Shown here in pieces: positions 12,722-20,470 of a stretch of 20,470 nucleotides of DNA; position 1 is the stretch's first letter; each line of letters begins with the position of its first letter. Under the pieces are notes generated by a model. The model had not been told where the DNA came from and did no database searches. It saw only the letters and a program-made list of their open reading frames with translations. The stretch lies in the IMG/VR virus record IMGVR_UViG_2585427735_000017, one strand, 5' to 3'. The position numbers and the translations under genes are program-made. The DNA comes from a virus. Its lineage: Duplodnaviria; Heunggongvirae; Uroviricota; Caudoviricetes.

Positions 12722-16120
<3,399 letters not shown>

Positions 16121-16839: not shown

Positions 16840-16850
16840 GTGGGGTGAAT

Positions 16851-19800
16851 ATGGCAGTAAAGATTTCAGGTGTACTGAAAGACGGCACAGGAAAACCGGT
16901 ACAGAACTGCACAATCCAGCTGAAAGCAAAACGTAACAGCAACACGGTGGTGGTGAACACGCTGGCCTCAGAAAATCCGGATGAAGCCGGGCGTTACAGT
17001 ATGGACGTTGAGTACGGGCAGTACAGCGTTATTCTGTTGGTGGAGGGATTCCCGCCGTCACATGCCGGGACCATCACCGTGTATGAAGATTCTCAACCCG
17101 GTACGCTGAATGATTTTCTCGGTGCCATGACGGAGGATGATGCCCGTCCGGAGGCACTGCGACGTTTTGAACTGATGGTGGAAGAGGTGGCGCGTAACGC
17201 GTCCGCGGTGGCACAGAACACAGCAGCCGCGAAGAAGTCAGCCAGCGATGCCAGCACATCAGCCCGTGAGGCGGCAACCCATGCGACTGATGCTGCAGGC
17301 TCAGCACGCGCAGCCAGCACGTCAGCCGGACAGGCCGCGTCGTCGGCTCAGTCAGCGTCTTCCAGCGCAGGAACGGCATCAGCAAAGGCCACTGAAGCAT
17401 CAAAAAGTGCTGCCGCTGCAGAGTCCTCAAAAAGCGCGGCGGCTACCAGTGCCGGTGCGGCGAAAACGTCAGAAACGAATGCGGCAGCGTCACAACAATC
17501 AGCAGCCACTTCTGCATCCACCGCGACCACGAAAGCGTCAGAAGCAGCCACTTCAGCACGGGATGCGTCGGCTTCAAAAGAGGCGGCAAAATCATCAGAA
17601 ACGAACGCAGCCTCGAGCGCCAGCAGCGCAGCTTCCTCGGCTACGGCGGCAGGAAATTCCGCGAAGGCGGCAAAAACGTCCGAGACGAACGCCAGGTCTT
17701 CTGAAACGGCAGCGGAACAGAGTGCCTCCGCAGCAGCAGGCTCAAAAACAGCGGCTGCGTCGTCTGCCAGTGCCGCGTCAACAAGTGCCGGGCAGGCCTC
17801 AGCCAGTGCCACCGCCGCCGGAAAATCGGCAGAAAGCGCCGCATCGTCTGCTTCAACAGCCACAACGAAGGCTGGCGAAGCCACTGAACAGGCCAGCGCA
17901 GCAGCGAGGTCTGCTTCCGCAGCGAAGACATCCGAAACGAATGCGAAAGCGTCGGAAACCAGTGCAGAATCCTCAAAAACGGCAGCCGCATCGTCCGCCA
18001 GTTCGGCGGCGTCATCGGCATCATCTGCGTCTGCTTCAAAAGATGAGGCGACCAGACAAGCGTCAGCAGCGAAGGGCAGCGCCACGACAGCATCCACGAA
18101 GGCGACAGAGGCAGCTGGCAGTGCGACGGCGGCAGCACAGAGCAAAAGTACGGCGGAATCCGCGGCAACGCGCGCTGAGACAGCGGCAAAACGGGCAGAG
18201 GATATTGCATCCGCCGTGGCGCTTGAGGATGCGAGCACGACGAAAAAGGGGATAGTACAGCTCAGCAGTGCGATCGACAGCACTTCCGAGTCACTGGCGG
18301 CAACGCCAAAAGCAGTTAAGGCCGCGTATGACCTGGCTAACGGGAAATACACCGCACAGGATGCAACGACAGCACAGAAAGGGATAGTCCAGCTAAGCAG
18401 CGCGACCAACAGCACGTCTGAAACGCTGGCGGCAACGCCAAAGGCAGTAAAAGCAGCCAATGACAATGCTGAGAAACGTCTGCAGAAAGATCAGAACGGT
18501 GCGGATATCCCTGGCAAAGACACCTTTACGAAAAATATTGGTGCCAGCCGTGCCTTCGGTGGGTCAGTAAGCACAACAACAGGAGACTGGACGACTGCAC
18601 AGTTTATCGAGTGGCTGGATTCTCAGGGAGCATTTAACCATCCATACTGGATGTGCAAGGGTTCCTGGTCTTATGGCAATAATAAAATCATTACTGATAC
18701 TGGCTGCGGTAATATTCATCTCGCCGGAGCTGTCATTGAAGTAATGGGGATAAAGTCAGCGATGACGATCCGCATTACCACACCGACCACCTCCACTGGT
18801 GGTGGAACAACTAACGCCCAGTTTACCTATATTAATCACGGAACAGATTATTCACCTGGCTGGCGAAGGGACTATAACTCCAGAAATAAGCCAACGGCAT
18901 CAGAGATCGGGGCGTTACCGTCAGGTGGAACAGCAGTATCATCAGTTAATCTGGCTTCAAAAGGTCGGGTAATCGCGCTGACAGACAATACGCAGGGGGC
19001 AACAGGTCTTGAGTTATACGAGGTGTATAACAACGGATATCCAACAGCGTATGGAAATATCATTCACCTGAAAGGGATGACAGCCGTTGGCGAAGGTGAG
19101 TTACTCATCGGCTGGAGTGGTACAAGCGGTGCTCATGCTCCGGCATTTATTCGTTCACGACGGGATACGACCGACGCAAACTGGTCGCCGTGGGCGCAGC
19201 TTTACACCTCAGCTCATCCTCCTGCAGAGTTTTATCCAGTCGGTGCACCAATCCCGTGGCCATCAGATACCGTTCCGTCTGGCTATGCCCTGATGCAGGG
19301 GCAGACTTTTGACAAATCTGCTTACCCGAAACTTGCAGCCGCTTATCCGTCAGGCGTGATCCCTGATATGTGTGGCTGGACGATTAAGGGCAAACCTGCC
19401 AGTGGTCGAGCCGTATTATCTCAGGAACAGGACGGCATTAAATCGCACACCCACAGCGCCAGCGCATCCAGTACGGATTTGGGGACGAAAACCACATCGT
19501 CGTTTGATTACGGCACTAAATCCACGAATAACACCGGGGCACATACACACAGTGTGAGCGGCTCTACAAACTCGGCTGGAGCACACACACACTCACTAGC
19601 CAACGTGAACACGGCTAGTGCTAACTCCGGTGCTGGTAGTGCATCAACAAGATTGTCTGTTGTGCATAATCAAAACTATGCAACATCATCTGCTGGCGCA
19701 CATACCCACTCACTGTCCGGCACTGCTGCAAGCGCAGGTGCACACGCACATACTGTCGGTATTGGTGCTCATACGCACTCCGTTGCGATTGGTTCACATG

Positions 19801-19886
19801 GACACACCATCACCGTTAACGCTGCTGGTAACGCGGAAAACACCGTCAAAAACATCGCATTTAACTATATTGTGAGGCTTGCATAA
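16851..19886 (+). CDS. stf: Side tail fibre protein Stf
   Basis: About 1011 aa; N-terminal [30 protein letters not shown], long Ala/Ser/Thr-rich repeat region, tandem KGIVQLSS...ATPKAVKAA repeats, and a C-terminal array of GAHTHS (HxH) motifs ending [12 protein letters not shown], as I recall for lambdoid Stf/StfR. ATG 16851 preferred over the track GTG 16845. Confidence 0.9.
18246..18479 (+). repeat. Tandem 132 nt (44 aa) repeat inside stf (about 1.8 copies)
   Basis: [44 protein letters not shown] followed by [34 protein letters not shown]; the copies start 132 nt apart (18246 and 18378). Confidence 0.7.
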
Positions 19887-20470
19887 TGGCATTCAGAATG
19901 AGTGAACAACCACGGACCATAAAAATTTATAATCTGCTGGCCGGAACTAATGAATTTATTGGTGAAGGTGATGCATATATTCCGCCTCATACAGGTCTGC
20001 CAGCAAACAGTACCGATATTGCACCGCCAGATATTCCGGCAGGCTTCGTGGCTGTTTTCAACAGTGATGAGGCATCGTGGCATCTCGTTGAAGATCATCG
20101 GGGAAAAACCGTCTATGACGTGGCTTCCGGCGACGCGTTATTTATTTCTGAACTTGGCTCGTTACCGGAAAATGTCACCTGGTTATCGCCGGAAGGGGAA
20201 TATCAGAAGTGGAACGGCACAGCCTGGGTGAAGGATACGGAAGCAGAAAAACTGTTCCGGATCCGGGAGGCGGAAGAAACAAAAAACAGCCTGATGCAGG
20301 TAGCCAGTGAGCATATAGCGCCACTTCAGGATGCTGTAGATCTGGAGATCGCAACGGAGGAAGAAACCTCATTGCTGGAAGCCTGGAAAAAATATCGGGT
20401 GTTGCTGAACCGTGTTAATACAACAACTGCACCGGATATTGAATGGCCAACAGTACCCATTATCGAATAG
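19886..20470 (+). CDS. tfa: Tail fibre assembly protein Tfa
   Basis: 194 aa; [79 protein letters not shown]... matches lambda Tfa by recollection; the start overlaps the stf stop (TAATG) and the stop is the last codon of the window. Confidence 0.92.

Follow-up and report, generated by a model that had tools for sequence, protein, structure and literature searches.

The seven HxH motifs of a lambdoid side tail fibre correspond to the histidines of the phage T4 gp37 needle

The C-terminal region (residues 796 to 1013) of the side tail fibre protein Stf described here is a close homologue of the tip with which the phage T4 long tail fibre protein gp37 binds its receptor. It very probably forms a trimeric needle in which His-x-His (HxH) motifs hold metal ions and a variable tip sits on the receptor. 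The HxH needle of Stf is an already known feature, belonging to the family of K-12 StfR and the T4 gp37 tip. The evidence for this assignment was obtained from a window of 20,470 nucleotides, which is the whole stretch of viral DNA that was analysed, and from comparisons of its stf and tfa genes with known fibre systems.

The stf gene and its genomic setting

The side tail fibre gene stf (positions 16845 to 19886, + strand) was assigned from the list of open reading frames, Pfam domains and gene order, and it is the largest late + strand reading frame in the window. Its product has 1,013 residues if translation starts at the GTG at 16845 and 1,011 residues if it starts at the ATG at 16851, and the TAA stop codon occupies positions 19884 to 19886. 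Residue numbers of the HxH motifs count from the GTG start (1,013-residue form). Pfam places a prophage tail fibre N-terminal domain, the part that joins the fibre to the tail, at residues 3 to 136 (PF08400, E = 3.6e-71), Phage_fiber_2 repeats (PF03406) and a tail collar domain at residues 800 to 847 (PF07484, E = 6.1e-11). Residues 1 to 94 also resemble a 94-residue chain named "Tail fiber protein" in PDB 9E7M (E = 1.9e-51).

Upstream of stf, Pfam recognizes genes for a lambda-type tape measure protein, M, L, K, I, J and Ail/Lom. The order J-lom-stf-tfa is also found in lambda 4W, phage Turner and the Rac prophage. These domains and neighbouring genes identify the locus as the stf-tfa pair of a lambdoid Escherichia coli phage or prophage. 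Both stf and tfa are intact reading frames, and all 14 histidines of the HxH motifs are kept.

The HxH array

An earlier note on this DNA, made from the sequence without database searches, had reported about seven HxH motifs within Gly/Ser/Ala-rich spacers at positions 19446 to 19805. Translation confirms exactly seven in the C-terminal 146 residues, in the order listed there, and the stated span takes in precisely the codons from the first motif histidine through the last. Along the + strand they are SHTHS (motif 1, residue 868, positions 19446 to 19454), AHTHS (motif 2, residue 900, 19542 to 19550), AHTHS (motif 3, residue 914, 19584 to 19592), AHTHS (motif 4, residue 953, 19701 to 19709), AHAHT (motif 5, residue 967, 19743 to 19751), AHTHS (motif 6, residue 976, 19770 to 19778) and SHGHT (motif 7, residue 985, 19797 to 19805). 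A single copy of the 14-residue Phage_fiber repeat (PF03335; 23.5 bits against a curated cut-off of 20) covers residues 895 to 908 and has motif 2 inside it. Fourteen of the 15 histidines in residues 868 to 987 belong to the motifs, the sole other being His941, and the remaining 893 residues of Stf hold just eight histidines.

Could such an array reflect only chance, or the low complexity of a tail rich in Gly, Ser, Ala and His, and have no specific role? The composition of the 120-residue span, in which Gly, Ser, Ala and Thr make up 63%, leans that way, as do short DNA repeats inside it. However, when the last 160 residues of Stf were shuffled, the mean number of HxH motifs was 1.3 (sd 1.05). 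Seven motifs appeared in none of 20,000 shuffles in a first set and were the maximum in a second set of 20,000. By chance, seven HxH motifs are therefore to be expected in at most about one sequence in 10^4. The comparisons with gp37 and with other Stf proteins, described below, bear further on this explanation.

Homology to the receptor-binding tip of T4 gp37

A phmmer search of all PDB sequences with the last 266 residues of Stf matched 2XGF (T4 gp37, residues 785 to 1026) with E = 9.2e-88, aligning query residues 49 to 266 with residues 28 to 242 of the chain. The sole further match was a weak one, limited to the collar, with a short tail fibre. The C-terminal 218 residues of Stf are identical to gp37 at 150 positions (69%). 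The note had also proposed that lambdoid Stf C-termini are related to the gp37 tip, and this holds for lambda Stf, which aligns over the same region with eight HxH motifs. Such homology is long established, with papers of 1989 and 1992 cited for it in PMC9659904 and PMC11705849. The lambda Stf C-terminus has already been modelled on 2XGF (PMC7291167), and lambda gpStf is described as extensively similar to the gp37 tip (PMC12617516). No solved lambdoid Stf tip was present among the PDB sequences searched, and PMC12617516 notes that no atomic structure is available for the receptor-binding domain of Stf.

The alignment with gp37 that the note had suggested pairs all 14 motif histidines of Stf one-to-one with gp37 histidines. 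The partners of motifs 1 to 3 are His 883/885, 915/917 and 929/931, those of motifs 4 to 7 are His 966/968, 980/982, 989/991 and 998/1000, and gp37 785 to 1026 contains no histidine beyond these 14. Successive motifs are 32, 14, 39, 14, 9 and 9 residues apart in Stf, compared to 32, 14, 37, 14, 9 and 9 in gp37.

In T4, seven iron ions lie along the gp37 needle, bound by the HxH histidines (PMC6957217; PMC6116203), in agreement with the iron binding described in the note. The structure of this needle (2XGF) dates from 2010. Each site is octahedral and built from six histidines, with one HxH motif contributed by each of three chains (PMC6116203). With the substitution H929A or H931A in gp37, T4 no longer forms plaques (PMC6957217). 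Octahedral HxH sites of six histidines are likewise found in the trimers of R-type pyocin fibres and of the P2 gpV and phi92 spikes (PMC6116203). Those proteins differ in having one site and another fold, whereas Stf has a stack of seven motifs, and no sequence homology of Stf to any of them was detected.

These comparisons also bear on the identity of the metal. It is improbable, in our judgement, that the HxH sites of Stf hold a metal other than iron, such as zinc. An HxH site of T4 gp12 does contain zinc in a crystal, although that protein had been refolded in a zinc salt (PMC6116203), and the identity of a metal is not readable from sequence. Against zinc, the stem of Stf is 76 to 78% identical to that of gp37, whose ions were assigned as iron, and iron usually fills the six-His HxH sites of pyocin fibres and of the spikes of P2 and phi92 (PMC6116203).

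The relationship with T4 is one between proteins. In a codon-aligned comparison, the tip region of Stf shares 60% of nucleotides with T4 compared to 69% of amino acids, and 104 of the 150 identical residues are encoded by different codons. These values point to long purifying selection, and recent transfer of DNA from T4 is ruled out. A megablast search of a phage collection returned no T4 record among the matches listed.

Domain map and path of the chain

The domain limits of gp37 (PMC6957217) were transferred to Stf through the alignment. The gp37 collar (D10) comprises residues 811 to 881 and 1010 to 1026, the needle stem (D11) comprises residues 882 to 931 and 960 to 1009, and the tip, at the distal pole, comprises residues 932 to 959 and binds LPS and OmpC (PMC6957217). 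The N-terminal part of the Stf collar is residues 796 to 866 (positions 19230 to 19442, + strand), which are 82% identical to gp37 811 to 881. It is followed by the outward strand of the stem with motifs 1 to 3 (residues 867 to 916, 19443 to 19592, + strand; 78% identical to gp37 882 to 931), a hypervariable tip or head subdomain of 30 residues that corresponds to the T4 tip (917 to 946, 19593 to 19682, + strand), and the returning strand with motifs 4 to 7 (947 to 996, 19683 to 19832, + strand), whose histidines align with those of gp37. The C-terminal part of the collar (997 to 1013, 19833 to 19883, + strand) is identical to gp37 1010 to 1026 at 16 of 17 positions. The collar is thus split by insertion of the needle, with the PF07484 match at residues 800 to 847 on one side and 17 final residues that are also collar-like on the other.

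Similarity to gp37 is not uniform along this region. Residues 952 to 1013 are about 76% identical, close to the values for the collar and the outward stem, whereas the variable block of residues 917 to 951, which includes the tip, is 17% identical. The Stf tip loop is unrelated to that of T4, and therefore the OmpC and LPS specificity of T4 cannot be transferred to Stf.

By homology, the Stf chain would run outward through motifs 1 to 3, turn within the tip, return through motifs 4 to 7 and end in the collar. In a hairpin chain of this kind, the distal end of the fibre is the turn that separates motif 3 from motif 4 rather than the C-terminus. The idea that the array marks a receptor-binding needle is retained, whereas a linear arrangement with the array as distal tip is not; by homology to gp37, receptor contact would fall to the loop midway along the array. 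Residues 917 to 946 would be that receptor-contacting end of the fibre.

A repeat search found that the segment encoding the tip is flanked by imperfect direct repeats of 26 nucleotides (85% identical). The left copy (positions 19572 to 19597, + strand) and the right copy (19689 to 19714, + strand) both encode SAGAHTHSL.

Conservation of the stem and variation of the tip

We compared 102 homologous Stf C-termini. The motif histidines are conserved in 96 to 100% of them, compared to 4% for the non-motif His941. Because these histidines persist amid varying surroundings, and because they are exactly the ligand residues of T4, the explanation by chance or low complexity is refuted, and we give it practically no credence. 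Between motifs 3 and 4 the homologues carry 50 different segments, 32 to 53 residues long, that form many unrelated groups.

This pattern is also pertinent to the suggestion, made for HxH-bearing fibres under the name "Ferrojan horse" and discussed in PMC11705849, that bound iron acts as bait for the iron-uptake receptors of the host. Bait would predict the reverse of what the homologues show, where the tip is variable and the histidines are invariant. Moreover, the ions of T4 run along the needle core, whereas the contacts with OmpC and LPS are made by tip residues (PMC6957217). We consider such a role for the Stf array very improbable, and a structural role for the ions remains the preferred reading.

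The length of the stem also varies little. From motif 1 to motif 3 it spans 46 residues, and from motif 4 to motif 7 it spans 32 residues, in 87 of the 102 homologues. Lambda-type homologues have spans of 56 and 41 residues with eight motifs, and one homologue (P0117) has spans of 42 and 27 residues with six motifs. Both of these real changes in length alter the two strands together, which fits two antiparallel strands held in register. The other deviants are single sequences in which one histidine is missing or the tip is deleted. In one of them (P0104) the tip is absent, and motif 2 abuts sequence that normally follows motif 4. In the collar, Stf has Cys846 in place of an Arg that is at least 90% conserved.

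Relationship to StfR, lambda Stf and phage Turner

Judged from its sequence, the tip described here is the variant that the Rac prophage of E. coli K-12 carries in StfR. The DNA at positions 19580 to 19715, which encodes it, is 100% identical to stfR of K-12 MG1655, and tip DNA of the StfR type was found in 414 of 5,426 complete E. coli genomes (about 8%). An alignment with K-12 StfR, also proposed in the note, revealed only two substitutions in the C-terminal 218 residues (T822 in place of Ala and C846 in place of Arg). The N-terminal approximately 550 residues are likewise nearly identical, and Tfa is 94% identical to TfaR. In contrast, the middle of Stf (about residues 560 to 790) is unrelated to StfR, the two proteins differ by one extra Phage_fiber_2 repeat of 44 residues, and their lengths are 1,013 residues for Stf and 1,120 for StfR.

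Lambda (Ur-lambda) shares with this locus the N-terminal attachment domain, collar, HxH needle and C-terminus of Stf, as well as the J-lom-stf-tfa order. Unlike the protein described here, lambda Stf has eight HxH motifs rather than seven, with an extra 10-residue FDYGTK repeat in the outward strand and an extra 9-residue HxH unit in the returning strand. Its tip is also different and longer, and binds OmpC (PMC12617516).

The tip of the isolated phage Turner is 99.5% identical to that of Stf. Compared to Turner, the J gene in the window has three deletions of one nucleotide each, the first of which leads to a stop codon at positions 15776 to 15778 that cuts off the receptor-binding domain PF12421. 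Given these frameshifts, the prophage around this copy of stf may be decaying, and the fibre it encodes may never be assembled. It would then be a non-functional remnant with the same fold and metal sites, which is compatible with the main explanation. Cys846 in place of a nearly invariant Arg is in keeping with decay, and so is the occurrence of an identical tip in K-12 Rac, a defective prophage. However, stf and tfa are intact with their full set of motif histidines, the nearly identical tip of Turner comes from an isolated phage, and the frameshifts in J could be sequencing errors. We regard a remnant as unlikely, if less so than the other alternatives, and its status would bear on expression rather than on the nature of the array, which we continue to assign to a gp37-type needle.

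The Tfa chaperone

The gene directly downstream (positions 19886 to 20470, + strand) encodes a tail fibre assembly chaperone, Tfa, of 194 residues (PF02413, Caudo_TAP, E = 1.2e-43), and its ATG overlaps the stop codon of stf by one base (TAATG). Its sequence is close to that of lambda Tfa (94% identity) and related to that of T4 gp38 (30% identity, E = 1e-18), in agreement with the identity that the note had given to this neighbour, and its C-terminal part matches Mu Tfa (5YVQ_B, E = 5.8e-9). T4 gp37 also requires gp57A. Assembly of Stf is assisted by Tfa (PMC7291167), and lambda Tfa substitutes for gp38 (Montag et al. 1989, as cited in PMC9659904).

Stf and T4 gp37 share a gp38/Tfa-type chaperone gene directly downstream of the fibre gene, along with a layout of collar, HxH needle and tip. 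They differ in that the chaperone of Stf is of the lambda type, in that the tips are unrelated (30 residues, 917 to 946, in Stf and 28 residues, 932 to 959, in T4), and in that Stf is the side fibre of a lambdoid siphophage whereas T4 carries the tip on the long fibre of a myophage.

Proposed structure of the Stf needle

The trimer, the bound metal, its identity and the receptor role are features that we infer from T4. Three Stf chains would intertwine into a trimer as in the T4 crystal structure. Each chain would pass from the collar into an outward beta-strand bearing motifs 1 to 3, turn through the 30-residue tip, and then follow a returning strand bearing motifs 4 to 7 back to the collar. 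In the layer formed by each motif, two histidines from each of the three chains would face the three-fold axis and together, through six imidazoles, bind one metal ion octahedrally, which is Fe(II) in T4. The outcome would be seven buried ions stacked in a six-stranded needle. The ions would be structural, setting the register of the chains and stiffening the needle, and would leave all contact with the receptor to the hypervariable tip that lies between motifs 3 and 4. Folding of Stf would need translationally coupled Tfa, encoded immediately 3' of stf.

We also modelled a monomer of residues 796 to 1013 with AlphaFold2, using an alignment of 58 sequences. The model has low confidence (mean pLDDT 53.4, pTM 0.19), and Foldseek found no PDB match for it at E of 0.001 or below. 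A poor model is expected for a single chain of an intertwined trimer that is held by metal, and the Foldseek outcome does not speak against the proposed needle.

Implications for tail fibre evolution and host range

The array delimits a conserved scaffold (positions 19443 to 19592 and 19683 to 19832) and an exchangeable tip (19593 to 19682). Such boundaries are what engineering or prediction of host range requires, and the value of the finding lies in this annotation.

OmpC and LPS are the receptors of the T4 tip (PMC6957217), and OmpC is that of lambda Stf (PMC12617516). A receptor for StfR was not found in the literature searched, where the gene is mentioned only in passing, and a Nature 2024 paper on lambda engineering holds nothing on the StfR-type tip. 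We tentatively suggest that tips of the StfR type may use a receptor other than OmpC or LPS, and that the HxH stem together with the SAGAHTHSL repeats may serve as a landing pad for tip swaps, although we would not count these proposals as likely. If true, a different receptor and recombination of tip cassettes would extend the known mosaicism of tail fibres rather than reveal a new kind of system.

Mosaic composition of Stf

Sequence comparisons indicate that the side tail fibre protein Stf is a mosaic over the part that precedes its T4-type tip (aa 1-795, window 16851-19229). Its first 94 residues correspond to a PDB 9E7M chain named "Tail fiber protein", itself 94 residues long (E=1.9e-51). 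Near-identity with StfR, the Rac prophage fibre of E. coli K-12, extends over aa ~1-550, where Stf carries one additional 44-aa Phage_fiber_2 repeat compared with StfR. Residues ~539-694 bear no relation to K-12 StfR and match 8JU3, a tail fibre protein S/S' structure (E=2.5e-84). The T4-type tip comes after this 8JU3-like segment.

Long antisense and other-frame ORFs of up to 372 aa were also observed on both strands of window 17074-18466, where they overlie an Ala/Ser/Thr-rich stretch of stf (aa ~120-470). These look like by-products of repetitive, GC-rich codon composition and not genes.

Within the collar domain, residue 846 of Stf is Cys (TGT at 19380-19382), giving DMCGW in place of DMRGW. 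T4 gp37, lambda Stf and K-12 StfR all have Arg here, as do at least 90% of the 58 homologues compared.

Genes around stf

The tail tip gene J, which begins at 12725 upstream of stf, was compared with its counterpart in phage Turner over window 15700-16120, and three single-base deletions were found (15703/15704, 15938/15939, and 15952/15953). The first of these creates a stop at 15776-15778, and the J ORF is therefore 1017 aa long rather than 1132 aa. Measured against the Turner gene, J is disrupted: either it is a pseudogene of a decaying prophage, or the deletions are sequencing errors.

On the other side, the stf stop codon and the start codon of the tfa chaperone gene share one base (TAATG at 19884-19888), as they also do in lambda and Rac. 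This overlap suggests that stf and tfa are translationally coupled. The tfa stop codon (20468-20470) is the exact end of the window, with nothing visible beyond it; in Rac and phage Turner, an invertase gene occupies the position downstream of tfa.

Variation in the needle and its tip

Two imperfect copies (85%) of a 26-nt direct repeat that encodes SAGAHTHSL, at 19572-19597 and 19689-19714, flank the hypervariable tip segment. In one homologous C-terminus (P0104), the tip is absent, and HxH motif 2 abuts sequence that otherwise follows motif 4. Because repeats bracket the tip and P0104 lacks it, the arrangement suggests that the tip is deleted or exchanged through recombination between repeats of this kind.

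Compared with the stem at 19443-19832, lambda-type Stf (L002, lambda-type phage 4W) has an eighth HxH motif. Its outward strand is extended by a 10-aa FDYGTK repeat and its returning strand by a 9-aa unit, IGAHQHPVV. Needle lengthening seems to proceed by matched insertions in both strands, which would add one more metal layer.
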